Source: an uncultured Verrucomicrobiota bacterium (GTDB lineage: Bacteria; Verrucomicrobiota; Kiritimatiellia; RFP12; UBA1067). Taken from it: a DNA stretch of 64,000 bases. Position numbers and translations under genes: made by a program. The DNA lies in NCBI GenBank assembly GCA_945834475.1, contig CAMAHK010000001.1, forward strand, positions 18,175-82,174, written 5' to 3'. The notes beneath the pieces are model-generated. The model searched no databases and was not told where the DNA came from. It was given only the letters and a program-made list of their open reading frames with translations. This document shows, piece by piece, positions 16,788 to 51,187 of the stretch. Numbering within the stretch: position 1 is the stretch's first letter; the number at the start of each line of letters is the position of its first letter.

Positions 16788-17819
16788 ATGACAGCAGAAG
16801 AGCAGATCAAGAGAGCAAAAGAGGTCTTTGATGTCGAAATCAATGGCCTTGAAGCGACCCGTGATTCGATCGGCGAGGCGTTCACCGCAGCGATTGCGAT
16901 GATGCTGGACTGTGTCCAGCGCGACGGCATCGTCGTTGTCTCGGGCGTCGGCAAGAACCTGCACATCGCCGAGAAGATGAGCGCGATTTTCGCCTCGACG
17001 GGAACGCGCTCCATCGTCTTGAATCCCGTGCAGGCGATGCACGGCGACCTCGGCATGGTCAGCTCGCGTGACATCCTGATCGCGCTCTCATTCTCGGGCG
17101 AGTCGGCCGAAGTCAACAATCTCATCCCGGCGATCCGGCGTCACGGACTCAAGGTCATCTCGATGACGGGCAAGCCCGAGTCGACGCTGGCGAAGCTCTC
17201 CGATGTTCATATCGAGATTCCGTGCGGCAAAGAGGCGTGTCCCTTCGGGATGGCGCCGACGAACTCGACGACGGCGACGATGGCGATGGGCGACGCACTC
17301 GCGATGGTGATGATTGACGCGCAGAAGTTCGAGCTCTCGAACTACGCGATGAATCATCCGGCCGGGGCGATCGGTCGTGCGCTCGTGATGAAGGTCTCCG
17401 ACATCATGCGTACCGGCGAGAAGCTGGCGACGGTCGCCCCGACGGCGACGGTGATGGAGACCGTAATGGCGATGACCGCGGCGAAGAGCGGCGCCGCCGT
17501 CGTGGTGGATGAAGCGGGAATGCTCAAGGGCATCTTCACGGACGGGGACTTCAGGCGTGTGATTGCTTCGGGTGCGACGCGACAGGAGTGTCGCGTCCCC
17601 GAGGGTGAGACGCCGCAACGGGGGCGCGACACTCTTGTCGCGCCGATTGAGAGCGTGATGACCACCTCGCCGATGTTCGTGCGCGCGAGTGCCTATGCGG
17701 CGGAGCTCCTCAAGATCTTCGAGAAGAAGCGCATCGACGATCTCCCCGTCTGCGACGCGAACGGCAAGGTGGTCGGTCTCGTCGACATCCAAGATCTTCC
17801 CAAAATGAAAGTCCTCTAA
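16788..17819 (+). CDS. kdsD: Arabinose-5-phosphate isomerase (KdsD/KpsF type: SIS domain + CBS pair)
   Basis: SIS motifs VVSGVGKNLHIAEKMSAIFASTG and LIALSFSGES. CBS pair motifs GIFTDGDFRR .. VGLVDIQDL. The inter-CBS linker is longer than I expect and carries two palindromes (separate feature). Confidence 0.85.
   Translation: MTAEEQIKRAKEVFDVEINGLEATRDSIGEAFTAAIAMMLDCVQRDGIVVVSGVGKNLHIAEKMSAIFASTGTRSIVLNPVQAMHGDLGMVSSRDILIALSFSGESAEVNNLIPAIRRHGLKVISMTGKPESTLAKLSDVHIEIPCGKEACPFGMAPTNSTTATMAMGDALAMVMIDAQKFELSNYAMNHPAGAIGRALVMKVSDIMRTGEKLATVAPTATVMETVMAMTAAKSGAAVVVDEAGMLKGIFTDGDFRRVIASGATRQECRVPEGETPQRGRDTLVAPIESVMTTSPMFVRASAYAAELLKIFEKKRIDDLPVCDANGKVVGLVDIQDLPKMKVL
17576..17644. repeat. Inverted pair of 22-nt GC-rich hairpins (REPIN-like) lying in-frame inside kdsD
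   Basis: 17576-17597 is GACGCGACA-GGAG-TGTCGCGTC. 17623-17644 is GGCGCGACA-CTCT-TGTCGCGCC. Both have perfect 9-bp stems, and the loops are reverse complements of each other. A third copy is at 31691-31712 in rho. Confidence 0.85.
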
Positions 17820-17893: not shown

Positions 17894-18607
17894 ATGAAGA
17901 AGCTGATGATTTCAACGGTTCTCGTGCTCGCTGCGGCGTCCGTGTTTGCGGCACCCAAAATGAAGAAGGCTGCTGCTGTTGCTGCGGTTGATGACGAGGT
18001 CACGACGGGCAGGGGTGCGAAGATTCTCATCTCTCAGGAACCGAAGCTCGGCCAGGCCGCGTGTCTAGGGGCGCCGTCGGTGGCGGGGGCATCGCTGATC
18101 GGCCAGGCCTACAAGAAGCCGCGCCAGTGGATTGTCCTTGAGACGAAGTACGATACCTTCGGCACGGAGAAGTCGAAGTTCCTCGACCAGCTCACGTTCA
18201 CGTGGCACGTCCTCCTCGAGACGAAGAGCGCGAAGGAGAACAAGGGCAACAAGGAAGGGCTTGCGCCGTACAGCTACTTCACGACGGCGACGACGTACTT
18301 CAATATTCCGACTGGCTCGCATGCCGCGTCGGTCGTGTTGTCGCCGAGCTATCTTGAGCGTTACGGTGAGCCGAAGGCCGTCGGTCTTGAAATCACGAAC
18401 CAGAACGGCGAGATGCTCAATGGCGACTGCTGGAGCGAAGTGAAGGGCATCGCCCCGCACAAGAAGTTCTGGGAAGACCCGAAGATCATGAATGCGGACG
18501 GGGCGGACGGCAATCCGATGATCGAGCGTCGCCAGGGTCTTGTCGACCGTTCGAAGACAATTTGGGCTCTCGTCAACCCGAACGACTACGAAGCAACGAT
18601 TCAGTAA
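17894..18607 (+). CDS. Secreted protein, first gene of the pilus/secretin-like cluster (positional equivalent of Akkermansia Amuc_1102)
   Basis: Signal peptide MKKLMISTVLVLAAASVFA-AP. 237 aa. An SD-like GAAAGGA lies upstream. It sits 48 nt upstream of the pilM-like gene. I recognised no catalytic motif. Confidence 0.6.
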   Translation: MKKLMISTVLVLAAASVFAAPKMKKAAAVAAVDDEVTTGRGAKILISQEPKLGQAACLGAPSVAGASLIGQAYKKPRQWIVLETKYDTFGTEKSKFLDQLTFTWHVLLETKSAKENKGNKEGLAPYSYFTTATTYFNIPTGSHAASVVLSPSYLERYGEPKAVGLEITNQNGEMLNGDCWSEVKGIAPHKKFWEDPKIMNADGADGNPMIERRQGLVDRSKTIWALVNPNDYEATIQ

Positions 18608-18655
18608 CTTCCCGTACCGCGGTGCGTCTCGCCCGCGGCGCTGAAACGAAAAACC

Positions 18656-20257
18656 ATGGCAAAGAAATTTCTAACCCTCAATATCGGCGCAGCCAACATC
18701 GAGCTTGCCGAATATGAGCAAAGCGGCAAATCGCTGACGCTCCTCAACTACGGGACGGCGCCGCTGGCGGCTCCGCTCGATGGCGGCAATGCCGAGACGA
18801 TTCTCGCGCCGGCGCTGCTCGAGCTTGTCCGCAGCCGCGGCTTTAAGCCGGGCCCGGTTGCCGTCTCGCTCTCGGGACAGATGGTGTTCCCGAAGTTCGC
18901 GGCGATTCCCGTCGCCGGCGCGACGGGCGACAAGTTCGAGCAGATGGTCCGTTACGAGATCGAGCAGGGCATTCCCTTCCCGATTGACGAGATGGTCTGT
19001 GACCGCCAGGTTCTCGGGGAGACCGAGAACGGCGATACGGGCGTGATGATCGTTGCGGCGAAGGTCGACCAGGTCGAGTCGATCATGGCGGCGGTGCAGT
19101 CCGTCGGCTTCCAGCCCGAGCTCGTGGGTGTCGCGCCGCTCGCGCTCGTGAATGCGATTCGTTTTGCGAGCGACGATCCCGACAGTTGCATGGTGGCACT
19201 CGACATCGGCGCGAAGACGACGTCGCTCGTCATTGCCGAGGGTGACAAGGTCTACACGCGTTCGATTCCCGTCGCGGGCAATGCAGTGACGAAGGAAATC
19301 GCGAACGCGCTCGGTTGCACGAGTGAGGAAGCCGAGCAGTACAAGCTGAACCAGGCGTATGTGTCTCTCGGCGGCGTGACGGAAGACGAGGACGAGGCGA
19401 CGGACCGGATGGCGAAGGCTTGCCGTGCGGTGATGACCCGTCTCAATGCCGAGATCAGCCGCTCGATCAATTTCTATCGCAGCCAGCAGAAGGGCAGCGC
19501 CCCCGTGCGGCTCTACCTGACTGGCGGCACGGCGCTCCTGCCGCAGATCGACCAGTTCTTCGCCGAACAACTCGGTATCGAAGTCGCGTTCTTCAATCCG
19601 TTTGAGCGTGTTAGAATCGGTCGCGGCATCGACCCCGAGTCGGTTGGCGCGGACGGCGCGTTCATCGCGGCGACCGTTGGCTTGGCTTTGCAGGAGATCG
19701 GTTTGGCGTATTTCGCGATCAACCTTCTGCCGCCGTCCATTGTTGAGGCGAAGGCGGAGAAAGCCAAGATCCCATTCCTTGTCATCGGTGGCGCAGGGCT
19801 TGTCCTCTCGCTCGTGCTGGTCGCGCTGGCATTTGGTAATGAGGCTAAGGTCATTGAGGCGCAGCGCGATGCGGTGCAGGCCAAGGTTGACCAGCTTTCG
19901 GGCTTTGACAAGAAGATTACGGCGGCAAAGACGGCGCTGGAGGCGACGACAGCCGATGCCGAGGCGTTGCGCGGGTTGTTGGCGAGTCGTACGGCGGCGG
20001 TGCAGCAACTCAATGCCGTGCGCACGTCGCTTCTGAACGGCATGTGGATTTCCGCCTGGAACGGGTCACGTGTGACCATACGCTATTGGAAGGATCGTGT
20101 GAAGCCGCCGGCGGGCAAGACCTCGGGCGAGGCTGTTGTTGACAAGCTTAAGACGAAGGCGGTTGTCGTACCGGATTCGGTGCGAATCGCCGACATGTCG
20201 CCAGTAGGGACGGACGGATCGATTGAACAGTTCACCGTGGAGGTGAAATTCCAATGA
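18656..20257 (+). CDS. pilM: PilM-like actin-fold protein fused to a PilN/PilO-like TM + coiled-coil segment
   Basis: LTLNIGAANIELAEY.., VALDIGAKTTSLVI, IPVAGNAVTKEIA and LYLTGGTALLPQIDQFF (ASKHA/PilM pattern). A TM segment IPFLVIGGAGLVLSLVLVALAF and a coiled-coil follow. There is a 4-nt overlap with the next gene. Confidence 0.75.
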   Translation: MAKKFLTLNIGAANIELAEYEQSGKSLTLLNYGTAPLAAPLDGGNAETILAPALLELVRSRGFKPGPVAVSLSGQMVFPKFAAIPVAGATGDKFEQMVRYEIEQGIPFPIDEMVCDRQVLGETENGDTGVMIVAAKVDQVESIMAAVQSVGFQPELVGVAPLALVNAIRFASDDPDSCMVALDIGAKTTSLVIAEGDKVYTRSIPVAGNAVTKEIANALGCTSEEAEQYKLNQAYVSLGGVTEDEDEATDRMAKACRAVMTRLNAEISRSINFYRSQQKGSAPVRLYLTGGTALLPQIDQFFAEQLGIEVAFFNPFERVRIGRGIDPESVGADGAFIAATVGLALQEIGLAYFAINLLPPSIVEAKAEKAKIPFLVIGGAGLVLSLVLVALAFGNEAKVIEAQRDAVQAKVDQLSGFDKKITAAKTALEATTADAEALRGLLASRTAAVQQLNAVRTSLLNGMWISAWNGSRVTIRYWKDRVKPPAGKTSGEAVVDKLKTKAVVVPDSVRIADMSPVGTDGSIEQFTVEVKFQ

Positions 20258-21273
20258 ACAAGACCAAGATCATTTTGGCCGCTATCGGCGGCGTCATTGG
20301 CGTTGCAGTGCTCGGTGCGGCTGTCTTCGCCTATTTCTCCTTTGCAGCCAAGACGGCGGCGATGGAAGGCGATGACGAAAACGGCGTCGACGGGCTCGAG
20401 ACCGTGACGGAGAAGGCCGAACAGCTCTCGCGGAAGTCGGTCTTTCCGTGTGCGGACAGTGTGAAGATTCTGACGGAATCGCGCGAGAAGATCGCCGAAT
20501 GGAAAGACGAGGCCTTCAAGCTAGCCGCGCGCGGCGATCGTCCGATCGTTCCGATGACGCCGGCTCAGTTCAAGGAGTTTGTGATCGGCGAGGCGCATCG
20601 CGTGGCCGGAATCAAGTCCGATTCGACGAATACGATCTGCGCCGCCGACTTCGAGTTTGGTCCGTTCAAGCCGTACATCGCCGAGGGCAAGATGCCGGAA
20701 GCGGAGGCGCTCAAGGATCTTCAGCGCAAGTTCGACGATGCAGTGACGATCATCGAGATGCTGGCGGCGGCGGGTGTCTCGACCGTCAGGCAGATCGATG
20801 TGAAGGATGTCGTGCAGAAGGTCGAGGAAGAGGCGAAGCCGAAGAAGGGTGCGAGGAGGCTGGCGAAGAAATTCGCAAAGGACGATGCCCCCGCGTTCAA
20901 GCCCGAAACGCATACCTACGAGATCGTCTGCAAGACGCGTCCCGCAGCTCTTGTGAAGGCACTCAATGCCTTTGCGACGAGCGAACGTTTCATGGTTGTG
21001 GATAATTTCAGGTTTGCCCTTGAACGTGACGCGATTGTCGCGACCTTCAACGGGAACGAGAAGAAGGATGAGCCACAGACGGGACGTCGCCGTCGCCGTC
21101 GCAGTTCGTCCGCCGATGAAAGCGAACAGCCGGCGGCGCAGGCCGAGGCTCCGAAGGTGACGGTCGTCACCGACCCGGCGGTCGACGCGACGTTCGATGC
21201 CGCGCTGACGGTGACGGTTCACGATTTCAAGTCGATGGAAGAGACGAAGGAAGACGGGGAGGAGTCGAAATGA
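20254..21273 (+). CDS. Bitopic membrane protein resembling Akkermansia Amuc_1100 (pilus-associated, PilO-like)
   Basis: N-terminal TM IILAAIGGVIGVAVLGAAVFAYF. The blocks TPAQFKEFV, FEFGPFKPY, IIEMLAAAGVSTVRQI, ALNAFATSERFMVVDNFRF and the C-terminal LTVTVHDFK line up with my recollection of Amuc_1100. The gene sits between the PilM-like and secretin genes, as in that locus. Confidence 0.45.
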   Translation: MNKTKIILAAIGGVIGVAVLGAAVFAYFSFAAKTAAMEGDDENGVDGLETVTEKAEQLSRKSVFPCADSVKILTESREKIAEWKDEAFKLAARGDRPIVPMTPAQFKEFVIGEAHRVAGIKSDSTNTICAADFEFGPFKPYIAEGKMPEAEALKDLQRKFDDAVTIIEMLAAAGVSTVRQIDVKDVVQKVEEEAKPKKGARRLAKKFAKDDAPAFKPETHTYEIVCKTRPAALVKALNAFATSERFMVVDNFRFALERDAIVATFNGNEKKDEPQTGRRRRRRSSSADESEQPAAQAEAPKVTVVTDPAVDATFDAALTVTVHDFKSMEETKEDGEESK

Positions 21274-22349
21274 TGGCACGCGGGGACAAGACGAATTTCT
21301 TCGTCAGCCACTACGAGTGGGTTGTCGCCGGCGTTGGCGCGTTGGCGCTGGCAGCGGGTGTGATGTTCTTTATGATGTCGCTGGGAGCCGATGCGGACGA
21401 AGCGGCGGCCGATGCGGTTCGCGCGGTTGACCGCAAGAAGCCGGCCGCCCTGGGCGTTGAGTCCGTCGACCTGGCGCCCTACGCGGCAGCGGTTCGTCAG
21501 GTGCGCACACCGGCGTTGGTCGCCGAAATCGCCGACCGTCAGGAAAGCTTCTTGGCGAGCGAGAAGCGCGTGAAGTGCGTGTGCGGCAAGATCATGCCCG
21601 GCGGTCTTGAGACGTGTCCGGCGTGCGGCGTGTCGCTGATCGTCGTCAACAAGGTCGACGAAGAGGCGAAGAAGGCCGAGCGGTGGGCGAAGAAGTATGG
21701 CGTGCAGCCGGATGATGCCGACGCGGATGGCGACGGATTCACGAACGCCGAGGAATACGCAATGGGCACCGATCCGACGGACGCGAAGGATCACGGCGAC
21801 TATCTGGATTCGCTGAAGCTTCAGCTGCCGCTTAAGGAAACCTACGTGCCGTTCTACCTCAAGGCGGTCAACAAGATCCCGGCGGGCTACCGTTGCGAGT
21901 TCGTCCAGAAGGGCGCGACGTTTAGCGCGACGGTCGGCGAACCTCTGGTGATCGTAAAGACCAGCGGCATCGGCAAGGAGACCAAGGTCGAGACGGGCTT
22001 CAAGCTGGTGGCTGCGGAAAAGAAAGAGAAGAAGGTCGGGATGAAGGGCGTTGCCGGAACGAAGATGGTGGATGCCTCGACGGTGACGATCGAACGTGCC
22101 AGCGACGGCAAGAAGCTCGAATTGGTCGTTCCGTTCAGGAAGCCGAAGTTGACGCCGGTAGACGTGCAGGCGACGCTGGTGTACACGCGTGGAAGCGTCA
22201 AGAACTTTGAGGTCGTTGCTGGTGAAACGATCGAGTTGAATGGAATGAAGTACAAGATTGTCTCCGTCACGGGAGGTGCCAAGTCCGCTGAAGTGGTTTT
22301 GGAGAATGGTCAGACTGGGAAGAGACAAACTCTGAAAACCCTTGAATGA
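21270..22349 (+). CDS. Membrane-anchored protein with zinc ribbon and one thrombospondin-type-3 motif (cluster component)
   Basis: TM WVVAGVGALALAAGVMFFMM. Zinc ribbon CVCGKIMPGGLETCPACG. TSP3 motif DDADADGDGFTNAEEYAMGTDPTD. ATGA overlap with the upstream gene. Confidence 0.6.
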   Translation: MMARGDKTNFFVSHYEWVVAGVGALALAAGVMFFMMSLGADADEAAADAVRAVDRKKPAALGVESVDLAPYAAAVRQVRTPALVAEIADRQESFLASEKRVKCVCGKIMPGGLETCPACGVSLIVVNKVDEEAKKAERWAKKYGVQPDDADADGDGFTNAEEYAMGTDPTDAKDHGDYLDSLKLQLPLKETYVPFYLKAVNKIPAGYRCEFVQKGATFSATVGEPLVIVKTSGIGKETKVETGFKLVAAEKKEKKVGMKGVAGTKMVDASTVTIERASDGKKLELVVPFRKPKLTPVDVQATLVYTRGSVKNFEVVAGETIELNGMKYKIVSVTGGAKSAEVVLENGQTGKRQTLKTLE

Positions 22350-22401
22350 CGCTTCGATATTTAGTATACTTATTTCAGAAAATAAGGAGTAGACTGTCGA
22401 T

Positions 22402-25400
22402 ATGACACAGATTCGTAAAATTGTCGTCCTCGGTGCGGTCGTGGCGGGCCTTGCCATCTGCCCGTCAGGGTATGCTCAGGATGATCTTGATGATCTTTTG
22501 AAAGATCTTGAGTCCGAGAGCGATCAGGCGGCAACGGTGCCGGCAAAGGCGGTGGAGACGGCTGAAGAGACGGCTGAAGAGCCTGCGGAAGAGCCTACGG
22601 ATACCACGCCTGTCGTCGAGAGCGACGACGGTACGATGAAGGCGGAGGAGTCGGCTGACGAAGAGAAGACCGAGGAACCTGCGGCTGACGAAGAGAAGAC
22701 CGAGGAACCTGCGGCCGAAGAGGAGAAGACCGAGGAACCTGCGGCTGAAGAACCGGCGAAGGTGACAAACGAGAAGGTCGACGAGGTCTTGAACCTTCTC
22801 GATGAGCTTGCAGAAGAAGCGGGTGAGAAGCCGAAGGCTGAGATGCCCGACGCGGAGAAGTCGGCTGTGGCCCAGAAGGTCGCGAAGCCGAATCCGGAGG
22901 CGGAGCTCCTGATGAACCTGGCGACGACGGAGCGCGTTCGCCGTCAGGCTCTTGACGCGCAGGCCAAGCGTGAGATCGCCGAGGCGCGGGGCTGCATGAA
23001 GAAGGCAGAGTACACAGAAGCCGTCCGTCATTATGGCAATGCCGCAAAATTGCTGAACGATCGTGCGGCTGTGAAGGACTTCCGCAAGGAATGCGAGCAG
23101 GGCATTGCCGAGGGGCTGTATCGTGCCGCATTGCAGGAGAACGACCTTGGGCGTCGCGACCAAGCGACCCAGATGATGGAGAAGGCCGTTGAAATGCGTC
23201 ACCCCCGTGCGCGTCGCATGTTGGAGAAATGGGCGGATGAGGGGAGTGTGGTCGCGGAGACTGAGGATAAGTCCGAGAATCGTCATGCGAAGAGTGACGA
23301 GGCGTATCGTCGTGATCGCGAGCAGATCCGCAAGCACTTGAAGCGGAGTGTGCAGCATTTGGCCAACCGCAATATGACGAAGGCGCTAGAAGAGTGCGAG
23401 GTTGTGCTCAAGAACGACCCGTACAACCAGGAGGCGATTCGCATCCGCAAGGCCATCCAGAAGAAACGGCAGGCGATTCTGAAGCAGGAGCGTGAGGCAG
23501 CCCGAGACGGCATGATTGCTGATGTCGACGAGGCGTGGCGTCCCGTGTATGCGGTTAATGCCTCTCAACTGAATGCCCAGTCGGCCGAGACGGTGAAGGC
23601 GCAGACGGGTGACGATCCCGAGCGCACGATGGAGCAGGATATCGAGCGCCGCATGAAAGAGATGAAGCTTCCCAACATCTCGTTCAAGCCGCCGGCCACG
23701 ATCATTGACGCGGTCGAGTTCTTCCGTCAGGCGTCGAAGGACTATGATCGTCCCGAAATCCCGGCCGAGAAGCGTGGCTTCAACTTCGTCCTGCGTACGC
23801 CGGTCGGCGCGATCAAGCAACAGGCGGAGGAAGAGGAGTCCGACGACTTCTCCGCGAGCGGCGACGAAGACAGCTCCCAGCCGACGAACGGTCTGGAGCC
23901 GATCCAGACGATCACGGCGAGCGACATCACGTTCCATGAGGCGTTGAAGCTTGTCTGCGACTCGGTTGGCTACAAGTTCATTGTTCGCGGTCAGGTCGTG
24001 ATGGTGATGCCGTTTGACATGTCGACGGCCGAACTCATCGCCCGCAAGTACAATGTTCCGGAGGCGTTCGTCGAGCGTGTTAGCAACGCATCAGACGAGA
24101 TTAAGCAGATGGGTGGCTTTGGCGCGAACAACAACTCGCGCAGGCAGGCGAGCGAGGAGGAAGAGGGCGAAGGCCAGGACTGGAAGGCCTTCTTCGAGGA
24201 AATGGGCGTCAAGTGGCCTGAGGGTTCGTCGATCAAGCACATCAAGGCGCTCGGCAAGCTCTATGTCCGCAACACGCGCGAAAACCTCGCGGAGTTCGAG
24301 AAGGTCCTCGACGAACTCGGTGGTCAGCCGCAGCTCATCGAGATCGAGACGCGTTTCGTCGAAGTCTCGCAGGAAGACCTCAACTCGCTCGGCTTCGAGT
24401 GGCTTCTCAACAATGACTACAACTTGGATGTCGGTAGGCGTCTGGGCAGGGCCTTGGGCTTGAGCAAGGCCGCCTATACGAGTGAGATTTCCGGTGGCAC
24501 TGCCGGTTCTGAGACGACGACGTCGTATACCTACAACAAGGACGGCACGATTAGCTCGGTCAGCACGGTGACGACGCCGGCTGGTACGGGTGGCACGACG
24601 TCCAGTGTCTGGAAGAAGGGTGGCGATAAGCGCAATTTGGGCGTTGGTGCCTTTGGCGGCACGGATTCCGAGTATAACAACAACAATCGCTACCTCTCAA
24701 CGGTTGGCAACCACATTTCGGGACAGTCAGCGTCGACGAATGATCAGTTCATGCGTGTGAACGCGTTCCTGGGCAGCGCTGACGTCTCGATGATCCTCCA
24801 TATGCTTGCCCAGCGCAGCGACACGGACCTCCTCTCCGCGCCGAAGATCGTTACCAAGTCGGGCGAGAACGCCGTCATCAAGGTCGTCACCGAATACATC
24901 TACCCGCAGGACTACGACGTGCAGCTCCAGTCGAGCAACTCGAACGGCGGTTCGAACTCGGGCGGTTCGCAGTCGGCCGTTCTCGCGGTCGTCGAGCCGC
25001 AGAACTTCACGATGCGTGAAGTCGGCGTTATCCTCGATGTCACCCCGACCTATTCCGAAGCGAACGGCGGTACGATCGACCTTGAGCTCAAGCCCCAGGT
25101 TGTCGATGAGCCGACGTGGAAGAACTACGGTATGAAGATTCCGTTCACGGGCAATTCGTCGCTGCAGAGCTTCGAAGGCATTGGCGGCATTCTCGACGGT
25201 CTCGCCAACTCGATTAACGCCATTGGTTCTATTCCGGCCGAAACCAAGAAGTGGATCATCAAGACGGAAACTGAAGCCGCCGAAGATGCGCTCCGTGGCT
25301 TGACGAAGTCGTCGAAGGACAACATGACCTACTACGATGCGCCGATGGAACAGCCCTTCTTCCACGTTCGCTCGATCGACTCGAAGGTCTCGATCACCCC

Positions 25401-25647
25401 GGGCGCGACGGTTGTCATGGGCGGTCTCATCACCGAGCAGCGCAAGGCGATGGACGACAAGATTCCGTTCCTCGGCGACCTGCCGTACATCGGTCGTCTC
25501 TTCCGCTCGCATGCCGAGCAGACGAACAAGCGTAACCTCCTCATCTTCGTGACGGGCCGCTTGATCACGCCGTCCGGTCGTGAGCTCAAGATGAACGAAG
25601 AGCAAGCTAACGAGGCCGAGGTCAAGGCAGCCCCGCAGGTCGACTAA
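22402..25647 (+). CDS. Secretin (GspD/PilQ family) with acidic-repeat and TPR-like N-terminal extension
   Basis: The C-terminal secretin signature is present: TPGATVVMGGLITEQ....DKIPFLGDLPYIGRLFRSHAEQTNKRNLLIFVTGRLI. Signal peptide MTQIRKIVVLGAVVAGLAICPSGYA. AGGAG SD upstream. Confidence 0.85.
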   Translation: MTQIRKIVVLGAVVAGLAICPSGYAQDDLDDLLKDLESESDQAATVPAKAVETAEETAEEPAEEPTDTTPVVESDDGTMKAEESADEEKTEEPAADEEKTEEPAAEEEKTEEPAAEEPAKVTNEKVDEVLNLLDELAEEAGEKPKAEMPDAEKSAVAQKVAKPNPEAELLMNLATTERVRRQALDAQAKREIAEARGCMKKAEYTEAVRHYGNAAKLLNDRAAVKDFRKECEQGIAEGLYRAALQENDLGRRDQATQMMEKAVEMRHPRARRMLEKWADEGSVVAETEDKSENRHAKSDEAYRRDREQIRKHLKRSVQHLANRNMTKALEECEVVLKNDPYNQEAIRIRKAIQKKRQAILKQEREAARDGMIADVDEAWRPVYAVNASQLNAQSAETVKAQTGDDPERTMEQDIERRMKEMKLPNISFKPPATIIDAVEFFRQASKDYDRPEIPAEKRGFNFVLRTPVGAIKQQAEEEESDDFSASGDEDSSQPTNGLEPIQTITASDITFHEALKLVCDSVGYKFIVRGQVVMVMPFDMSTAELIARKYNVPEAFVERVSNASDEIKQMGGFGANNNSRRQASEEEEGEGQDWKAFFEEMGVKWPEGSSIKHIKALGKLYVRNTRENLAEFEKVLDELGGQPQLIEIETRFVEVSQEDLNSLGFEWLLNNDYNLDVGRRLGRALGLSKAAYTSEISGGTAGSETTTSYTYNKDGTISSVSTVTTPAGTGGTTSSVWKKGGDKRNLGVGAFGGTDSEYNNNNRYLSTVGNHISGQSASTNDQFMRVNAFLGSADVSMILHMLAQRSDTDLLSAPKIVTKSGENAVIKVVTEYIYPQDYDVQLQSSNSNGGSNSGGSQSAVLAVVEPQNFTMREVGVILDVTPTYSEANGGTIDLELKPQVVDEPTWKNYGMKIPFTGNSSLQSFEGIGGILDGLANSINAIGSIPAETKKWIIKTETEAAEDALRGLTKSSKDNMTYYDAPMEQPFFHVRSIDSKVSITPGATVVMGGLITEQRKAMDDKIPFLGDLPYIGRLFRSHAEQTNKRNLLIFVTGRLITPSGRELKMNEEQANEAEVKAAPQVD
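22651..22752 (+). repeat. 3.4 copies of a 30-nt tandem repeat encoding (A/E)(D/E)EEKTEEPA inside the secretin gene
   Basis: The unit GCGGCTGACGAAGAGAAGACCGAGGAACCT is read at 22651, 22681 and 22711, with a partial copy at 22741. Confidence 0.9.
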
Positions 25648-25658
25648 AAAGGTATGGT

Positions 25659-28600
25659 ATGACCCAAACACAGATCAGATCTGTCATCCGGAGGGGGCTC
25701 TTGAGCTCCCTCTGTTTGATTATGCCCCTTGTTGTGCAAGCAACGGGTATCAATGTTAACCTGAGCGAAACCGAACGGGCCAAGGGCAGCATTTCCCCGG
25801 CTGGCAAAACCTTCGACATCCAGACCGGGACGATGACGTTCACGGCCATTCCGAAGACGGGGTACGAGCTGGTGGGCTGGGGTGTGTCGATCGGGGAGAG
25901 CGCGGTCACAATCAATCCCGCGAATCCAAATGAACTGACGGTGACGGCATCGGCGTCGGTTCTGGTCGTGCAGATGCAGCCGACCTTCAGGGCCTCGACG
26001 TACACGCTCCGCTTCGATGCGAACGGCGGCCAGACGCCGAATGCGTCGCAAAAGGTGACGTACGGCACGGAGCTGGCGGCTTTGCCCGTGCCGACGCGGG
26101 AGGGACACACCTTTAACGGCTGGTTCGTCGGAACGCGGCAGATTCTCGCGGGCGAGACGGTAACATTCACCGCGAATGTCACGGCCACAGCGAACTGGAC
26201 GGTCAACAAGTACGCCTTCAAGCTGACGATTACCAAGGGTATCAAGGGCGTTTACTACAAGCTTGGTGAAGAGACCACGCGCTACAATTCGAGTTCGGTT
26301 TCCGAGTCGGTCGCCTATGGCACAAGTTACAGTTGGTATGCTGAGCCGGCGACGGGCTATACGACGACCTACACGCTTGAGAATCCGAAAACCGGAACGA
26401 TCGGCGCACAGGAAACGGCCTTTACCGTGGGAGCCGTGGCTCAGAAGATGACGGTTTATTTCGATCCTGGAACGGGTGGGACGACACCCGTCGCCTCTAA
26501 GTCGGTGACATACGATCAGCCCTATGGTGAGCTGCCGATTCCCGAAAAGGACGGTTCTCATTTCGAAGGCTGGGAAACGCCGTCGAGAGACCGTATCGAT
26601 GCGACGACGATCGTCCGGCTGACGGCCGATACGACGCTGACGGCGCGGTGGAGCGCGGAAAAGGTTCAGGTCGTGTCCAGCGCGACGAATGGACGCGTCA
26701 GCGTCTCGCCGACGACAGTCGAATTCGGGAAGCCGGTCGAGATCCAATGGTGGCCGAATTCTGAAAGCGGCTACGACTATGCTTTCGCCCAGGCCAAGGT
26801 TTATGCCGGAAGCGACGCGACCGGCATTTGCTTGGAGACATATACGGAAGGCGTTGGCGCACTCTTCACGCTCACCAAGTACTATCCGACAATCGCCGTG
26901 GTGGTCGAGTACACGAAATCGGCGAAGGCGTATAAGGTGACGTTCAACGGCAACGAGGGGACGTCCTCGCAGGAAGATGCGATCGTTCACTACAAGGAAC
27001 CTTTTGGCACACTACCGACGGCCACGCGAACGGGCTATGACTTCGACGGTTGGTCGACTTTGCGTTCGGGCTCGTCGCGCGTCACCGAGACGGATCTCTA
27101 CGAGTGGACGTACGACCGCGAGCTCTATGCACGGTGGATCGCAAAGACGTATGCGATCACGACCGAAACGACGCACTGTCAGCTGGCCGTGACGACGAAC
27201 GGGTTGGAAACGTCCATGGGGGCGTACGACCGTCCGATTCTGATTTCGGCGACCCCCGAGTCGCGCACGGGTTACGACACTCGCCTGACGTCGGTCGTCG
27301 TCTATTCGTCTGCCAGTCCCGGCGCGAGTCCGATCAAGAACATCTCCTCCCCGGAGAACTTCATCATGAGCGGCCTGCAGGCCTATTACGAGGGCATCGT
27401 GATCCGCGCGATTGCGACGCAGACGGCCTGCACATACACACTGTCGTTCGATCTGAACGGCGGAATGGGATCGGCCGAAAATCGCAACGTCACCTACGAC
27501 GGGATGTACGGTGACTTGCCGATAGTGACGCGCACAGGATACGATTTTGTCTCTTGGCAACTGTCGGACGGTACGGTCGTAACGCCCGAGGACACGGTAA
27601 AGATTACGGCGAACGCCAAGCTGACGGCACAGTGGCAGGCGAAGACCTTTAACGTTTCGTTCGATCCGCAAACGAAGGACGTCGAGACACCGTCGGCCAT
27701 CGCGGTCACCTACGATGCGACGTACGGGACATTGCCGACGTTGATCCGTACGGGTTATACGTTCAATGGTTGGTACGATGCGAAGACGGAAATCACCGCA
27801 GAGACGACGGTGAAGATTACGTCCGACCAGACGCTGACGGCAAAATGGACGGCGAACCGCTACACGATCCTCTTTAATGCGAACGGCGGTTCAGGCACGA
27901 TGACGAGCGTGGCTGATTGCGCGTATGATGAGCCGGTCAAACTGCCGCTCTGTGCTTTCCGACACAAGACACATACGTTCATCGGATGGGCGACAGACCC
28001 CCTAGCAGAAACGCCAGACTATGCTGATGGTGCGAGTGTTTATGGATTGACGGACGAAAGTGAAATATCGCTCTATGCTGTTTGGTTGGATACGCGCAAC
28101 GAGTTGTCCAAGGCCGCACATTGCGTTAACTGCACCGTTGAGGGTACGGGTAACATACCTTTTGTTCCGTGGTATGATCCTGTGTCGGGTCAGACGGCTG
28201 CGCAAAGCGGGTATCGGGATCTGCCGTTCGTTTCGCAGGAGGTTAGTAGTAGCTGGATGCGTTTAAATCTTGTTGGCCCTGGAACGTTCTCGTTTAAGTG
28301 GCGTGTTGGTGAGGGTGATCCAATTTGTAAGATATCGCTTTACATAGACACGAAGTACATGGGCACGAAAGAAGAGTATCCGGCAGAGAATTGGGATGAA
28401 AACTTTAATGTTGTTCAGGAAGGACTTTGGTTCCGTGTAACTTGCAAACTTTCAGAGTCTCGTTCCTATGCGGTAGATTTTGAATCTTTTGCGCGTAAAG
28501 AACAGGGCCATGGCTACATCCTCGTCGACGAGTTGACCTGGACGCCGAACGGAACGAACCCCGCGCCGACGGAGGCGGATCGGCCGGTGATTGGGGCGGG

Positions 28601-28817
28601 GTTTTCGTTTATGACGGATGCGCGGTTTGACTATGTCATTTGGACGACGGAATCGCTGGTGTCGCCGATCGAGTGGAAGCCTGGCGAGCCGATTCATGGA
28701 ACAGGCGAGGCGGTGAAGCTGCCGGGGTTGCTGGGAGTCGCCGCAGGCGGGGACGCACTGCGGTACGGGGATGTGCCGCAGCGGTTCTACAAGGTCGAAG
28801 TCCGTCAGCGGAAATGA
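25659..28817 (+). CDS. Listeria-Bacteroides repeat (Flg_new / InlB B-repeat) surface protein with shared C-terminal module
   Basis: Six repeats of the pattern Y(T/K)(L/V)xF(D/N)xNGG....V.Y....G.LP...R.GY.F.GW......T....I..D..L.A.W. Signal peptide present. Ends ..YVIWTTESLVSPIEW..RFYKVEVRQRK. Starts 11 nt after the secretin stop. Confidence 0.85.
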   Translation: MTQTQIRSVIRRGLLSSLCLIMPLVVQATGINVNLSETERAKGSISPAGKTFDIQTGTMTFTAIPKTGYELVGWGVSIGESAVTINPANPNELTVTASASVLVVQMQPTFRASTYTLRFDANGGQTPNASQKVTYGTELAALPVPTREGHTFNGWFVGTRQILAGETVTFTANVTATANWTVNKYAFKLTITKGIKGVYYKLGEETTRYNSSSVSESVAYGTSYSWYAEPATGYTTTYTLENPKTGTIGAQETAFTVGAVAQKMTVYFDPGTGGTTPVASKSVTYDQPYGELPIPEKDGSHFEGWETPSRDRIDATTIVRLTADTTLTARWSAEKVQVVSSATNGRVSVSPTTVEFGKPVEIQWWPNSESGYDYAFAQAKVYAGSDATGICLETYTEGVGALFTLTKYYPTIAVVVEYTKSAKAYKVTFNGNEGTSSQEDAIVHYKEPFGTLPTATRTGYDFDGWSTLRSGSSRVTETDLYEWTYDRELYARWIAKTYAITTETTHCQLAVTTNGLETSMGAYDRPILISATPESRTGYDTRLTSVVVYSSASPGASPIKNISSPENFIMSGLQAYYEGIVIRAIATQTACTYTLSFDLNGGMGSAENRNVTYDGMYGDLPIVTRTGYDFVSWQLSDGTVVTPEDTVKITANAKLTAQWQAKTFNVSFDPQTKDVETPSAIAVTYDATYGTLPTLIRTGYTFNGWYDAKTEITAETTVKITSDQTLTAKWTANRYTILFNANGGSGTMTSVADCAYDEPVKLPLCAFRHKTHTFIGWATDPLAETPDYADGASVYGLTDESEISLYAVWLDTRNELSKAAHCVNCTVEGTGNIPFVPWYDPVSGQTAAQSGYRDLPFVSQEVSSSWMRLNLVGPGTFSFKWRVGEGDPICKISLYIDTKYMGTKEEYPAENWDENFNVVQEGLWFRVTCKLSESRSYAVDFESFARKEQGHGYILVDELTWTPNGTNPAPTEADRPVIGAGFSFMTDARFDYVIWTTESLVSPIEWKPGEPIHGTGEAVKLPGLLGVAAGGDALRYGDVPQRFYKVEVRQRK

Positions 28818-29226: not shown

Positions 29227-29241
29227 TAATTGGAGCGCATC

Positions 29242-30336
29242 ATGGCTGACTGCATTCTGTTGGATCCGACGACAAGCCACAACCGTCATCAAGATCACGA
29301 CAACGTCTATCATCTCTACAACCGTATTGCACATTCGGTTCGTTTCCTCAATGACGAAGAGAAGGACGATCTTATGGACCGCGTACGGCGAATCTCCGAG
29401 TTCTGCGGCATCAAGCTCTTGAGCTGGTGCTTGATGACGAATCATTTCCACCTGCTTGTCTATTTGCCTTATCCGCAGAAGCTGACGCGTGAAGAGATTG
29501 GGCGGCGGCTTGGCCTTTTGCGACCCGAGGAGAGGGCGGTCTTCGTCGACGGATTTATTTTGGATCGTGCGCCTCGAGAGGTGACGAAGCGCCTGTACCA
29601 CATAGGCATGTTCATGAAGATTGTCAAAGAGAACTTCACGATCGCCTATAATGCGCGAACCGGGCATAGCGGCACCATGTGGGCGGGGCCGTACTGCTTC
29701 AAGAAGGTTGCGATGTCCGTAGGGAACCTCAGCCGCTCGGCCGCGTATCAGAATCTCAATCCGGTGCGCGCGTGCATGACCGCAGATTACGAGAGCTATC
29801 CCTGGACATCTTTTGCGGCCGCGACGAAAGGGGATCGGGTGGCATTGGACGGCATAAACTTCGTCTTCGGAGGCTACGAAACGCGAACTGATGTATCTGA
29901 TACAATAGTTCGCCCGCCAAACGAGGAACTAATTTCTTGGATGCGAAAGAAGATGGATGTCGAGCTTGAGGAATGTCAGCGAGAACGAGCGGAGGCGGTG
30001 TGGCGGAAGCGCTTGGCGGGTGAGCAGGGCGCAGAGATCGATCCGCTGACGTCTGAGGCAATGGTCGCGCAGGTTGAAGCGCGGATGGCAAAACTGCGGA
30101 CAGAGGACTTCCATGTTGAACTAGCGAAGATTCTCGGGCGAGCAGCGGAAGAAGACGAGGTGAAGATCATTCGCGCGATGGCGGCGGAGCCGGAGGCAAA
30201 TACCGATGAGCTGGCGAAGATCTCGGGTGCCTCGGTGAGTCGTGTCAAGCGTATCAGCGTGATCTTACAGAAGTTCGGTGTTATCAGAAGGGAAGGAACC
30301 AAACGTCGAAGTTTCTGGAAGATCGACCTGTTTTGA
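29242..30336 (+). CDS. REP-associated tyrosine transposase (RAYT) / IS200-like Y1 HUH protein with C-terminal coiled-coil + winged-HTH
   Basis: HUH motif LSWCLMTNHFHLLVY. Catalytic Tyr region SAAYQNLNPVRACM. C-terminal HTH TDELAKISGASVSRVKRISVILQKFGVIRREGTKRRSFWKI. I prefer the ATG at 29242 over the TTG at 29230. Hairpin H3 lies inside the reading frame. Confidence 0.75.
   Translation: MADCILLDPTTSHNRHQDHDNVYHLYNRIAHSVRFLNDEEKDDLMDRVRRISEFCGIKLLSWCLMTNHFHLLVYLPYPQKLTREEIGRRLGLLRPEERAVFVDGFILDRAPREVTKRLYHIGMFMKIVKENFTIAYNARTGHSGTMWAGPYCFKKVAMSVGNLSRSAAYQNLNPVRACMTADYESYPWTSFAAATKGDRVALDGINFVFGGYETRTDVSDTIVRPPNEELISWMRKKMDVELEECQRERAEAVWRKRLAGEQGAEIDPLTSEAMVAQVEARMAKLRTEDFHVELAKILGRAAEEDEVKIIRAMAAEPEANTDELAKISGASVSRVKRISVILQKFGVIRREGTKRRSFWKIDLF
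29883..29913. repeat. Hairpin H3 (same orientation as H1), inside the RAYT-like ORF
   Basis: GCGAACTGATGTATCTGATACAATAGTTCGC, with 30/31 identity to H1. It is translated as TRTDVSDTIVRP, at the junction between the Y1 domain and the C-terminal region. Confidence 0.9.
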
Positions 30337-30799: not shown

Positions 30800-31048
30800 G
30801 TGAATGGAGAATCGCATGGTTGGCCGTATTGTCGAGAGAAATCGCCTTCTCCACGACCGCTTACGAAATCAATGCCGAGGAAGACCTTCGCGCACGTGAG
30901 CGGCGAGAGCTATTCAAGCGATTGACGGGAACGCGAAAAGCCGTTCATCTGACGTATGTCACGACCTATGGCCTCAAAGCGAATAGCCATGCGGGTCTCG
31001 TTCAATCTCAGGTAGTTCTCGAAGACCTGTTCAATGTTATCAAGTGAA

Positions 31049-31597
31049 ATGAAACGAATTGCTCTAACCGGAGGCATCGCGTGCGGCAAGTCGCTTGTCG
31101 CGCGATACCTGAACGAACTCGGCGTCGAGACGATTGACGCCGATGACATCGTCCACGAGATCATTCCCGATCCCGCCGAGCGCAAGCGCATCGCCGCCGA
31201 GGTCTTCGTCGATCCCGAAAAGCGCAAAGAGCTGGAAGCGCGACTCCATCCGATTGTGAGGGAGCGGATCGCGAATTGGTTGGGCGGGGAGCTAGGAGAC
31301 GCCGCGCCCGAGGACGGGCCGCGGTACGGTGTGGCCATCATTCCGCTCTTATTCGAGACACACTGGGACGCGGATTATGATATAATATGTGCCGTTGTCT
31401 CGGCGCGGGAAACACAGATCGCGCGGATGATGACGACGCGCGGGTACTCCCGCGAAGAGGCCGAAGCCCGACTCGCCGCTCAAATGCCCGTCTCGGAGAA
31501 GGCTGAAAAATCCCACTACGTGATCACGAACGACGGAACCGCCGAAGAGCTCAAGCTCAAGGTCGCCGCGTTTGTCGATTGGCTGAAGACCCACTAA
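31049..31597 (+). CDS. coaE: Dephospho-CoA kinase
   Basis: MKRIALTGGIACGKS P-loop at the N-terminus. Also IDADDIVHE, IPLLFE, YVITNDG. Alternative ATG at 31034. Confidence 0.85.
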   Translation: MKRIALTGGIACGKSLVARYLNELGVETIDADDIVHEIIPDPAERKRIAAEVFVDPEKRKELEARLHPIVRERIANWLGGELGDAAPEDGPRYGVAIIPLLFETHWDADYDIICAVVSARETQIARMMTTRGYSREEAEARLAAQMPVSEKAEKSHYVITNDGTAEELKLKVAAFVDWLKTH

Positions 31598-31602
31598 TAC
31601 TT

Positions 31603-33180
31603 ATGTCAGATCAATTCGATGTCTTTGCCGGCGCGATTCCGCCGCCGCCCAAACCCGCACCTTCACAGGGGAATTTCGAACCCAAGCGGGGACGCGACAC
31701 TCTTGTCGCGTCGGCCCAGAAAAAGCAATTCCACAAACAGCCCTTCAAGAAGTTCAATCGTGGCAACGGCGGGAACGGCCCGAAGAACAACGCCTCGCCC
31801 CTGCGTGGCGCGAACGGCACGGAGTCGGTGAATCCGCTTCTTAATGCGCCGCTCCCGACGGAGCCCGCGCCGCAGGCCGACGCTCAGGCGAATCCGAACC
31901 GCAATCCTGACTTGCCGGAGTATCGTCTCGCCGACATCCAGACGTGGCCGTCGCCCGTCATTGTCGAGCGCATGATGCCCGGCGCCGATCCCGAGGAGCT
32001 CGGCTCGTACCGCAAGCACGAGCTCATCTTCGCGGCGATCCGCCGCTATCTTGCGAACGGCGGCGCCGTGCTCGCGTCCGGCTGCCTTGAGATCGTCCGC
32101 GAGGGCCACGGCTTTCTCCGCTCGGCGAAGAACAACTTCCTCGCGTGTCCTGAAGACGTCTTCGTCACGCAGCAGCAGATCCGCCGCCACGCGCTCCGTA
32201 CGGGCGACCTCATCGAAGGCCCTGTGCGCGACCCGCGCGACAAGGACCGCTTCTTCGTCCTCGGCAACGTGCAGACGGTGAACGGCAAGGAGCCGTCTGT
32301 CGCCGCGCGCGTCATTCACTTCGAGAACTTGACGGCGACGTTCCCGACGCGGCGCATTGTGCTCGAGACGGATCCCAAGGAATTCTCAACGCGCGTCATC
32401 GACCTCTTCACGCCGATTGGCTTCGGCCAGCGCGGACTCATCATCGCGCCGCCGCGCGTCGGCAAGACGGTTCTCCTCCAGAAGATGGCGAACGCGATTT
32501 CAAAGAACCATCCCGAGGCGATCCTCATCATCCTCCTCATCGACGAACGTCCCGAGGAAGTGACGGACATGCAGCGCAACACGAAGGCGATGGTCCTCTC
32601 GTCGACCTTCGACGAAGAGCCGCAGCATCACGTCGGCGTCACCGAGATGGTGCTCGAGTTCTCGAAGCGCCAGGTCGAGAACGGGAAGGATGTCATCATC
32701 CTCATGGATTCCATCACGCGCATGGCCCGCGCCTACAACACGGTGCAGCCCCACTCAGGCAAGATCCTGACGGGCGGCGTGGACGCGCTTGCGATGCACC
32801 GTCCGAAGCGCTTCTTCGGCGCGGCGCGCAACATCGAGGGCGGCGGTTCGCTGACGATCATCGCAACCGGTCTCATCGACACGGGTTCGCGGATGGACGA
32901 GGTCATCTTCGAGGAGTTCAAGGGCACGGGCAACATGGAAATCGTGCTCGACCGCTCCCTCGCCGACAAGCGCATCTTCCCGGCGATCGACATCGAGAAG
33001 TCGGGGACGCGCAAGGAGGACCTCCTCCTCGATCCGATGGAGCTCGAGAAGACGTGGGGGCTGCGGCGTATCCTGTCGGCGGCGGGCCCCGAAAGCGCGA
33101 TGAAGAGCGTTCTCAACTCGCTTCGCAAGACCCAGTCGAATCCCGAGTTCCTGCTCGCGCTGGATCTCAATAAGATGTGA
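31603..33180 (+). CDS. rho: Transcription termination factor Rho with ~110-aa low-complexity N-terminal extension
   Basis: Walker A GQRGLIIAPPRVGKTVLLQ. Also LLIDERPEEVTDM, ILMDSITRMARAYN, SLTIIATGLIDTGSRMDEVIFEEFKGTGNMEIVLDR..FPAIDIEKSGTRKE. Start taken at the ATG at 31603. Confidence 0.95.
   Translation: MSDQFDVFAGAIPPPPKPAPSQGNFEPKRGRDTLVASAQKKQFHKQPFKKFNRGNGGNGPKNNASPLRGANGTESVNPLLNAPLPTEPAPQADAQANPNRNPDLPEYRLADIQTWPSPVIVERMMPGADPEELGSYRKHELIFAAIRRYLANGGAVLASGCLEIVREGHGFLRSAKNNFLACPEDVFVTQQQIRRHALRTGDLIEGPVRDPRDKDRFFVLGNVQTVNGKEPSVAARVIHFENLTATFPTRRIVLETDPKEFSTRVIDLFTPIGFGQRGLIIAPPRVGKTVLLQKMANAISKNHPEAILIILLIDERPEEVTDMQRNTKAMVLSSTFDEEPQHHVGVTEMVLEFSKRQVENGKDVIILMDSITRMARAYNTVQPHSGKILTGGVDALAMHRPKRFFGAARNIEGGGSLTIIATGLIDTGSRMDEVIFEEFKGTGNMEIVLDRSLADKRIFPAIDIEKSGTRKEDLLLDPMELEKTWGLRRILSAAGPESAMKSVLNSLRKTQSNPEFLLALDLNKM
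31691..31712. repeat. Third copy of the 22-nt GC-rich hairpin, in-frame in the rho N-terminal extension
   Basis: GACGCGACA-CTCT-TGTCGCGTC. Together with its CGGGG 5' flank it is translated RGRDTLVA, the same peptide as copy 2 in kdsD. Confidence 0.9.
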
Positions 33181-42349: not shown

Positions 42350-42354
42350 CAATC

Positions 42355-43341: not shown

Positions 43342-43369
43342 TATTATTCAATAAGAAATCGAGGAAAAT

Positions 43370-45419: not shown

Positions 45420-45435
45420 GTTCTGGCTGATGTGT

Positions 45436-45464
45436 TTGACACCTTGGGATTGATCTGATAGAAT
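45436..45464 (+). promoter_or_regulatory. Near-consensus sigma70-type promoter TTGACA - 17 nt - TGaTAGAAT
   Basis: TTGACA at 45436-45441, TG at 45456-45457, TAGAAT at 45459-45464, all read directly. The predicted TSS near 45471 is 2 nt from the TTG at 45473 and 17 nt from the ATG at 45488. Confidence 0.5.
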
Positions 45465-45487
45465 AAAACGCGTTGAGGCGTTTGAGG

Positions 45488-46486: not shown

Positions 46487-46494
46487 GGTTGTAT

Positions 46495-49866: not shown

Positions 49867-49900
49867 GCGTATGGCAGATAAATAGTGTATAATACGAATC

Positions 49901-51146: not shown

Positions 51147-51187
51147 AGTTGATTGACTTTATCGGTTGAATATGTAATACTACGCGT

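Follow-up and report, generated by a model that had tools for sequence, protein, structure and literature searches.

A Kiritimatiellae orthologue of the Akkermansia MUL2 gene cluster and the large surface proteins encoded beside it

A cluster of five genes for components of a type IV pilus-like envelope machine was analyzed in a 64-kb stretch of DNA (hereafter, the window) from contig CAMAHK010000001.1 of an uncultured Verrucomicrobiota bacterium. About 12 kb of the source contig further upstream was also inspected, bringing the inspected DNA to 76 kb. The five genes do not constitute a new type of system but are orthologous to the MUL2 (Amuc_1098–1102) cluster of Akkermansia, which is specific to the Planctomycetes-Verrucomicrobia-Chlamydiae (PVC) bacteria, and represent it in Kiritimatiellae. 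MUL2 itself is a divergent type IVa pilus module, PilM-N/O/(P)/Q, made of the alignment subcomplex and the secretin. The core unit and the CoaE and Rho genes that follow it are conserved across two PVC phyla.

Composition and conservation of the cluster

An open reading frame (ORF) scan of the window placed the five genes in the same orientation on the plus strand, between positions 17894 and 25647, with products of 237, 533, 339, 359 and 1081 amino acids (aa). All features described below are on the plus strand unless stated otherwise. Two junctions in the cluster (20254/20257 and 21270/21273) are overlaps of 4 nucleotides (nt), and a gap of 11 nt separates the secretin stop codon from the start of a gene for a 1052-aa protein with Flg_new repeats. 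The gene coordinates, both overlaps and the gap had been given in a first-pass annotation of this DNA and were all reproduced. The same annotation noted a likeness to Akkermansia Amuc_1102 to Amuc_1098, which was borne out, with five NCBIfam families matched in the same order: Amuc_1102_rel (E 7e-8), Amuc_1101_fam (2e-116), Amuc_1100_fam (2e-12), Amuc_1099_fam (3e-16) and Amuc_1098_fam (4e-128). Only the Amuc_1099_fam match is above the curated NCBIfam equivalog cut-off (60 vs 50 bits). Pfam searches of the cluster and the adjoining gene revealed PilM_2 (1e-40), TSP3_bac, Secretin (1e-32) and six Flg_new stretches. The predicted topology, one cytoplasmic and three bitopic proteins together with an outer-membrane secretin, mirrors PilM/N/O/P/Q.

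The first gene (17894..18607) codes for a secreted Amuc_1102-family (MUL2A-like) protein with a type I signal peptide, MKKLMISTVLVLAAASVFA. The protein matched the Amuc_1102 structure (PDB 7DSZ) at E 0.038, and PF28178 (Amuc_1102) is the Pfam family recorded for the identical product of the source contig. The product of the second gene (18656..20257) is a PilM-PilN fusion of the Amuc_1101 family (MUL2B-like; 390 bits, PilM_2 1e-40), in which a cytoplasmic actin-like PilM is followed by a transmembrane (TM) helix at residues ~370–390 and a periplasmic coiled-coil/beta region. The 533-aa fusion scored 165 bits with the TIGR01175 pilM model (cut-off 133), and its PilM part matched PilM of the Myxococcus type IVa pilus (PDB 3jc8) at 2e-44. 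Residues 354–475 could be aligned colinearly with Myxococcus PilN (3jc8_Na), the match being weak (E 0.013). The third gene (20254..21273) codes for an Amuc_1100-family bitopic protein in the PilO position, with the family match (E 1.8e-12) over residues 13–301 and a TM helix at residues 3–30. Its orthologue on locus L084 carries Pfam PF28028 (Amuc_1100), and a search of PDB sequences with the family profile gave no match.

The fourth gene (21270..22349) encodes an Amuc_1099-family bitopic protein in the PilP position (Amuc_1099_fam 60 bits, TSP3_bac 27 bits). It is composed of an N-terminal TM segment, a four-cysteine zinc ribbon, a TSP3 calcium-binding motif and a C-terminal all-beta domain; C103, C105, C116, C119 and the DxDxDG motif are invariant in 31 orthologues. 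An AlphaFold2 (AF2) model with a predicted local distance difference test score (pLDDT) of 77 has beta strands at 182–358. Foldseek comparison of this model with PDB gave nothing significant (PilP 2lc4 at E 0.33), and the family profile matched only calcium-binding and zinc-finger motifs in PDB. Identity with PilP is therefore not claimed. Most orthologues have two TSP3 motifs, DxDGDGxPDxWE followed by DxDGDGFTNxEE; in the window copy, and in that of locus L054, the first motif is lost and the linker differs.

The fifth gene (22402..25647) encodes a PilQ/GspD-type secretin of the Amuc_1098 family (Pfam Secretin 1e-32; Amuc_1098_fam 429 bits over residues 166–1063). The match with GspD and PilQ structures in PDB is confined to the C-terminal gate region, residues 985–1056. 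The N-terminus, ...GLAIC, is a signal peptide with a possible lipobox. A 30-nt tandem repeat is present in 3.4 copies at 22652–22752 and also at 22555–22601 of this gene; it encodes an acidic 10-aa unit (AADEEKTEEP-like) in an N-terminal extension that lies outside the Amuc_1098_fam match.

Conservation was followed with PilM as query over one genome per GTDB species. The search gave 396 confirmed matches (at least 396 reference genome contigs). The nearest PilM homologues are in annotated Kiritimatiellae metagenome-assembled genomes. The best 80 of the 396 matches (loci L001–L080), on which the synteny counts by tblastn are based, come from gut and rumen Kiritimatiellae, with PilM identities of 46–68%. 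Their common gene order is the gene for a giant protein, ackA, pta, kpsF, the five genes, CoaE and Rho. A further set of 72 Akkermansia/Verrucomicrobia loci (0.95 Mb) was fetched with a 7DSZ segment, and gene order was compared in six of them (L099, L137, L140, L151, L161 and L163). Akkermansia and two more distant Verrucomicrobia have genes for the 1102 protein, PilM-N (612 aa), the 1100 and 1099 proteins, the secretin, CoaE and Rho. The window proteins are 25–34% identical to these counterparts (tblastn), and it is the same order at this level of identity that makes the unit a conserved one over the two phyla. CoaE and Rho (31034..33180, by Pfam) follow in the same order in Kiritimatiellae, Akkermansia and other Verrucomicrobia; the window departs from this arrangement by the Flg_new gene and a transposase gene inserted before CoaE. 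Directly upstream of the cluster lies the gene for a KpsF/GutQ-like sugar isomerase (16788..17819; Pfam SIS and CBS on the identical product), syntenic in L001–L080. It had no match in the Akkermansia loci, and its upstream position is kept in Kiritimatiellae only.

Compared with Akkermansia MUL2, the window thus has the five families in the same order and orientation, the PilM-PilN fusion, the bitopic 1100 and 1099 proteins, the large secretin and the downstream CoaE-Rho pair. It differs in the low identity just given, with four of the five family scores below the equivalog cut-offs, in the acidic-repeat N-terminus of the secretin, and in the kpsF, pta, ackA and 5098-aa giant genes upstream and the Flg_new insertion, none of which is found in the Akkermansia loci.

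Previously, the Amuc_1098–1102 products were described as abundant envelope proteins and termed pili-like (Ottman et al. 2017). A 2026 ISME J paper (PMC13174399) and a 2025 preprint, taken together, liken Amuc_1102 (PDB 7DSZ) to an archaeal type IV pilin, identify Amuc_1101 as PilM and cite Davey et al. 2023 for the importance of MUL2 in mucin acquisition by Akkermansia. The former adds a predicted Amuc_1102 homotrimer and a synteny in Akkermansiaceae that includes the secretin, dephospho-CoA kinase and rho, and the latter describes Amuc_1100 as structurally PilO/PilN-like and places type IV/II pilins and pseudopilins at other Akkermansia loci. The PMC13174399 survey covers taxa other than Kiritimatiellae.

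Large surface proteins and their C-terminal modules

The giant gene occupies positions 43..13158 of the window, its 5′ end lying outside. Its stop codon at 13158 is the giant ORF end that the first-pass annotation had put ~4.7 kb upstream of the cluster. On the source contig (L091), a 93-kb ENA contig that contains the window sequence unchanged, the full-length product is 5098 aa long, with a predicted Sec signal peptide cleaved between ...VSVAFA and ADGG, 17 DxDxDG motifs and the Pfam domains TSP3_bac, Laminin_G_3 and DUF2141. TSP3_bac was detected by Pfam in both the giant and the zinc-ribbon component of the cluster, in agreement with an earlier observation of a common motif. Giant orthologues are encoded upstream of ackA in every one of the best 80 loci that extends that far. 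Judged by its signal peptide, the giant is an envelope protein exported by Sec and hence would need some route across the outer membrane. Export by a type I secretion system (T1SS) was rejected, the Sec signal peptide being present.

Several ORFs surround the giant gene. A 135-aa predicted lipoprotein (9585–9992 of the source contig, L091) ends 8 nt before it, and an IS200/RAYT-like Y1 transposase gene, the second one in this region, lies just upstream on the minus strand (L091 8057–8725). Still further upstream, L091 1–7728 encodes a second giant protein of >3591 aa with Pfam Gly_rich_2 and without the terminal motif described below. Between the giant gene and ackA, at 13172–14238, there is a DUF3990 gene with a 139-aa ORF that overlaps it by 4 nt. 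This pair had no tblastn match in the 80 GTDB loci and looks like a strain-specific insertion, possibly toxin-antitoxin-like.

The gene that starts after the secretin (25659..28817) encodes a surface protein with Listeria-Bacteroides repeats, in which Pfam finds Flg_new (six stretches) and Flg_new_2 domains and which starts with a signal peptide. Both this protein and the giant end in a similar way. The C-terminal module of the giant (12874..13155; ...KASLVDVNW...SGFYKVEVVQ) has its motif kept at the C-terminus of the orthologues, and that of the Flg_new protein (28536..28814; ...ESLVSPIEW...QRFYKVEVRQRK) is a hidden Markov model (HMM) domain over the last 93 residues. The terminal motif [FYW][FYW][KR][VIL]x[VIL] was found on 47 large plus-strand ORFs of the loci and the window, 43 of them giant orthologues from the loci; a control search of ~1430 minus-strand ORFs gave none. 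All 43 of these orthologues have (S/T)L..W about 40 residues before the terminal motif. By HMM, the ending ...(S/T)L..W...GF[YF][KR]VxV is shared by the giant orthologues of about 55 species. A scan of 4409 ORFs found the module always single and C-terminal, on the giant orthologues (~55), on proteins encoded after the secretin and on two short ORFs after Rho.

Pairwise BLASTP of the giant with the Flg_new protein aligned 13 residues (D..xFYKVEVxQ) at E 0.06. In non-circular HMM tests, a model of the Flg_new type found the window giant at E 0.3, and a model of the giant type found one Flg_new protein at E 0.0025 while missing the one in the window. These comparisons indicate that the tails of the giant and the Flg_new protein are related only marginally. 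The motif itself is not due to chance, being conserved in the giant orthologues and missing from the minus-strand ORFs. The "shared C-terminal module" of the first-pass annotation consequently stands as a conserved terminal motif on both proteins, but as a common domain it is marginal by BLASTP and cross-HMM.

A module profile trained on the Flg_new family was run exhaustively with HMMER against 1.84 billion representative proteins (E <= 1e-3) and returned 573 representative clusters, mostly with the match at the extreme C-terminus. The best matches are mostly Flg_new proteins of 800–1650 aa with the module at the very end. About one third of the top matches form another class, ending in ...QRFYRV and often with several tandem copies, which comprises Verrucomicrobiota proprotein-convertase, subtilisin and cadherin-like proteins; one of them adjoins fatty-acid genes. 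A word-indexed search with a module profile yielded only 15 short fragments, which give no base rate.

The AF2 model of the module consists of a beta-strand core and a terminal amphipathic beta-strand predicted at high confidence. Foldseek comparison with PDB gave no significant match, the top weak ones being fibronectin type III (FN3) domains; such matches are too weak for the module to be called FN3. The arrangement of an N-terminal Sec signal and a small conserved C-terminal beta domain on large surface proteins is reminiscent of the C-terminal domain (CTD) of type IX secretion system (T9SS) substrates and of PEP-CTERM proteins. In contrast to these, the C-termini matched no T9SS CTD or CTERM model of Pfam or NCBIfam and have neither a TM helix nor a basic tail. 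T9SS and exosortase genes are missing from the neighbourhood, and the fold comparison gave only weak resemblance to FN3. Both kinds of sorting were rejected, there being no model match and the ends ...FYKVEVVQ and ...FYKVEVRQRK lacking a hydrophobic helix.

The interval between the secretin and CoaE genes (hereafter, the slot) could be compared in 57 informative species. CoaE directly follows the secretin in 38 of them, and a large signal-peptide protein is encoded in the slot in ~13. Eight slot proteins, including that of the window, are complete; five end in the motif and two are clearly without it. In ~12 further loci, Flg_new-like genes are found after Rho. Among database relatives retrieved with the module profile, every contig that shows both flanks (5/5) has the gene between secretin and CoaE; three other contigs were too short. 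One uninformative contig has PIN/FitA genes beside the Flg_new gene. The placement of Flg_new-module genes after the secretin is a strong positional association, for a profile trained on that family. Other slot contents in relatives are HipA/helix-turn-helix (HTH) pairs (L083) and AAA_14/DUF4143 genes. In the window the slot also holds a gene in which an IS200-like Y1 transposase is joined to a winged-helix domain (29230..30336; Pfam Y1_Tnp and HVO_A0114); this gene had no tblastn match in L001–L080. Since toxin-antitoxin genes, AAA_14/DUF4143 and the IS200-like transposase gather there, the slot behaves like a variable recombination hot spot. No module or large neighbour was detected in any of the 72 Akkermansia/Verrucomicrobia loci, so the link between module and cluster is lineage-specific.

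Just past the secretin stop codon and 30 nt into the Flg_new ORF there is a terminator-like site, a GC-rich hairpin with a U-rich tail (25689..25714). The RNA of positions 25640–25730 folds at −32.4 kcal/mol (z −3.07), with none of 200 shuffled sequences as stable. The hairpin may be an attenuator of read-through from the secretin into the Flg_new gene. A promoter and terminator scan, in which terminators were fewer than in shuffled controls, was uninformative on operon structure.

These data bear on the proposal of the first-pass annotation that the cluster is a dedicated apparatus, working without a motor, which translocates or anchors giant Sec-exported repeat proteins and recognizes them by the C-terminal ...W...F[YF][KR]VxV module. 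Its best support is the module-bearing Flg_new gene directly after the secretin in all five contexts and in five of the eight complete slot proteins, with a gap of only 11 nt here; yet the slot is empty in two thirds of the species (38/57) and two complete slot proteins have no module. Both large secreted proteins that flank the cluster end in the motif, which is terminal and never internal in the giant orthologues of ~55 species, but by HMM there is hardly any relation between the two module types, Verrucomicrobiota proteins of other kinds, encoded far from any secretin, carry related domains in tandem, and the second giant protein next door has no such ending. The giant, with its Sec signal peptide and without T1SS-type features, would require an outer-membrane route; three housekeeping genes, equally syntenic, nevertheless lie between it and the cluster. 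The TSP3 calcium-binding motifs common to the giant and the Amuc_1099-family protein belong to a common calcium-binding repeat. Finally, Akkermansia and the other Verrucomicrobia keep the core cluster with no module-bearing gene in 72 loci. We consider this proposal unlikely. Its Akkermansia parallel, the shared motif and the non-random placement of the Flg_new gene hold, whereas the empty slots and the Akkermansia/Verrucomicrobia loci speak against its core. A functional tie of the module-bearing proteins to the secretin is possible, and the data do not require it. The narrower idea that the module (...(S/T)L..W...[GR]F[YF][KR]VxV-COOH) serves as a signal for docking or sorting, by which Sec-exported giants pass through or are anchored at a MUL2-type secretin, perhaps via strand complementation with the Amuc_1102-family protein, appears quite doubtful to us.

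A working model of the machine and its alternatives

Pfam detected neither a PilB/GspE ATPase nor a PilC/GspF platform gene among the ORFs of the window, as the first-pass annotation had noted for the 64 kb, nor in the 12 kb further upstream; a gene for prepilin peptidase was likewise missing from both. A six-frame regular-expression search of the window for prepilin N-termini (G-F-T-L-I-E type) gave a single internal chance match. Classical pilMNOPQ operons likewise contain no ATPase, platform or pilin genes and have housekeeping genes downstream of pilQ, namely aroK-aroB in Pseudomonas and Neisseria. Because such operons are separate from the pilB, pilC and pilin genes, an "ATPase-less, pilin-less" appearance, the label that had been given to the cluster, is what would be expected from a 64-kb view. 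The label is correct for the window; as a trait of the system it is weakened, pilMNOPQ being normally apart and the Akkermansia pilins being encoded elsewhere.

The cluster resembles the type IVa pilus PilMNOPQ of Myxococcus, Pseudomonas and Thermus in having PilM, bitopic proteins and a secretin in one operon without ATPase, platform or pilins. PilM and PilQ are present by TIGR01175 (165 bits), the PDB PilM match (2e-44), Pfam Secretin and the PDB PilQ match. Unlike in that system, PilM forms a single protein with PilN, families without significant sequence or fold match to PilO or PilP hold the corresponding positions, a zinc ribbon and a TSP3 motif are added, and an Amuc_1102-family gene comes first in the operon. 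Similarity to a type II secretion system (T2SS) is also apparent: GspD and PilQ are matched about equally well by the C-domain of the secretin, and the candidate substrates are Sec-exported folded proteins. However, none of GspC, E, F, G–K, L and M is encoded in the window, where the secretin is the sole member of a T2SS set, and a PilM-type component is typical of type IVa pili.

By analogy with these systems, we lean, with modest confidence, to a model in which the cluster, together with motor and pilin genes at other loci, makes a surface fibre or pseudopilus that serves attachment and the acquisition of glycans. The cytoplasmic PilM ring would be fused to a PilN-like bitopic segment, which would pair in the inner membrane with the PilO-like bitopic protein of the Amuc_1100 family. 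The third bitopic protein, of the Amuc_1099 family, with its zinc ribbon, TSP3 motif and beta domain, would take the PilP position and bridge to the periplasmic domains of the secretin, a putative PilQ-type outer-membrane channel. The secreted Amuc_1102-family beta-sandwich protein would be a periplasmic or surface partner. As with stand-alone pilMNOPQ operons, the genes for the motor ATPase, platform, prepilin peptidase and pilins most likely lie at other loci, and by analogy with Akkermansia the machine would most likely make a short surface fibre or pseudopilus with which the cell attaches to host or dietary glycans and acquires them. The giant would be a conserved neighbour through inherited synteny. 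The Flg_new protein would be an accessory surface adhesin that evolves fast and whose gene, in the variable slot just after the secretin, is probably co-transcribed with the secretin gene. Adhesins of the PilY1/PilC type, which are Sec-exported, ~1000 aa long, linked to pilus genes and could be displayed via the secretin, offer an analogy for it; PilY1 genes, however, sit with minor pilins rather than after pilQ and have no sequence relation to the Flg_new protein.

A number of observations weigh against this model. There is no motor, platform, peptidase or prepilin gene within the 76 kb. The PilN, PilO and PilP assignments are based on position, topology, weak matches (E 0.013; Foldseek E 0.33) and the literature. 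Four proteins score below the NCBIfam equivalog cut-offs (Amuc_1102, 32 vs 55; Amuc_1101, 390 vs 650; Amuc_1100, 47 vs 180; and Amuc_1098, 429 vs 750 bits); the cut-offs are tuned to close relatives, and such scores put the proteins outside the equivalog range and still within the families. In addition, the occurrence of Flg_new-module proteins beside the secretin in 5/5 contexts, at 11 nt in the window, and a module-bearing giant universally upstream are more than the model needs.

The same components could instead form an import conduit, in which the secretin and PilM/N/O take partly degraded glycans into the periplasm, as PilQ does in DNA uptake, and the Flg_new and giant proteins are surface glycan binders that feed it; such a role has been proposed for MUL2 and mucin in Akkermansia. 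MUL2 has been reported as important for mucin acquisition, and mul genes are reportedly required in Akkermansia for the intracellular build-up of mucin products. Verrucomicrobiota accumulate glycans in the periplasm (PMC13174399), the host lineage is one of gut and rumen Kiritimatiellae, and the giant carries a Laminin_G_3 (concanavalin-like) domain. Nevertheless, the direction of transport cannot be read from sequence, MUL2 is described mainly in terms of attachment or pilus biogenesis (PMC13174399), and no glycoside hydrolase or sulfatase genes lie beside the cluster in the window. We regard an import conduit as distinctly unlikely.

A fibre made without a motor was also considered, in which Sec exports the beta-sandwich protein of the Amuc_1102 family, this protein polymerizes through the secretin with no type IV pilins involved, and the terminal beta-strand of the neighbours might insert by strand complementation. 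The type I rather than class III signal peptide of the Amuc_1102-family protein would fit such a fibre, as would the archaeal-pilin-like description and predicted homotrimer of Amuc_1102 (PMC13174399), the lack of a pilin gene in the window and the confidently predicted final amphipathic beta-strand of the module. On the other hand, a cytoplasmic PilM ring would have no obvious role where a cytoplasmic motor and platform are absent, and Akkermansia encodes pilins and pseudopilins elsewhere. We regard such a fibre as very unlikely.

Genomic surroundings and significance

According to Pfam, the rest of the window contains ackA, pta, the KpsF-like isomerase, the IS200-like transposase, CoaE, Rho, YbeY and a lipid A acyltransferase. 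Two paralogous AAA-ATPase_like genes with a PD-(D/E)XK (PDDEXK_9) domain are located at 36975–38837 and 39394–40965, with an unannotated 215-aa ORF between them. A surface-polysaccharide island extends over ~42300–52000 and 58400–64000, with a GC content of 46–52% at 46–52 kb and 60–64 kb, compared to ~60% elsewhere. It codes for GT2, GT8 and GT10 glycosyltransferases, a DegT aminotransferase, an FdtA/WxcM-like isomerase, a hexapeptide acetyltransferase, a sugar transferase, an MsbA-like ABC exporter and an ABC-2 permease, and was probably acquired horizontally. Positions 60356–61750 encode a fusion of a HipA_C-like kinase domain with a winged-helix HTH.

MUL2, which includes the gene for the immunomodulatory Amuc_1100, is among the most studied loci of Akkermansia and is required there for foraging on mucin. 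The same machine, with its CoaE-Rho neighbours, is found in hundreds of gut and rumen Kiritimatiellae, which extends its range from Verrucomicrobiales to a sister PVC phylum; presence in both groups argues for an ancient and general envelope function. The linkage to large surface proteins with a common terminal module is lineage-specific and, as a lead only, provides a concrete idea of what the machine might handle. If the module were indeed a docking signal, the proteins that bear it would be the first defined substrate class for the MUL2 machinery, at least in gut Kiritimatiellae.

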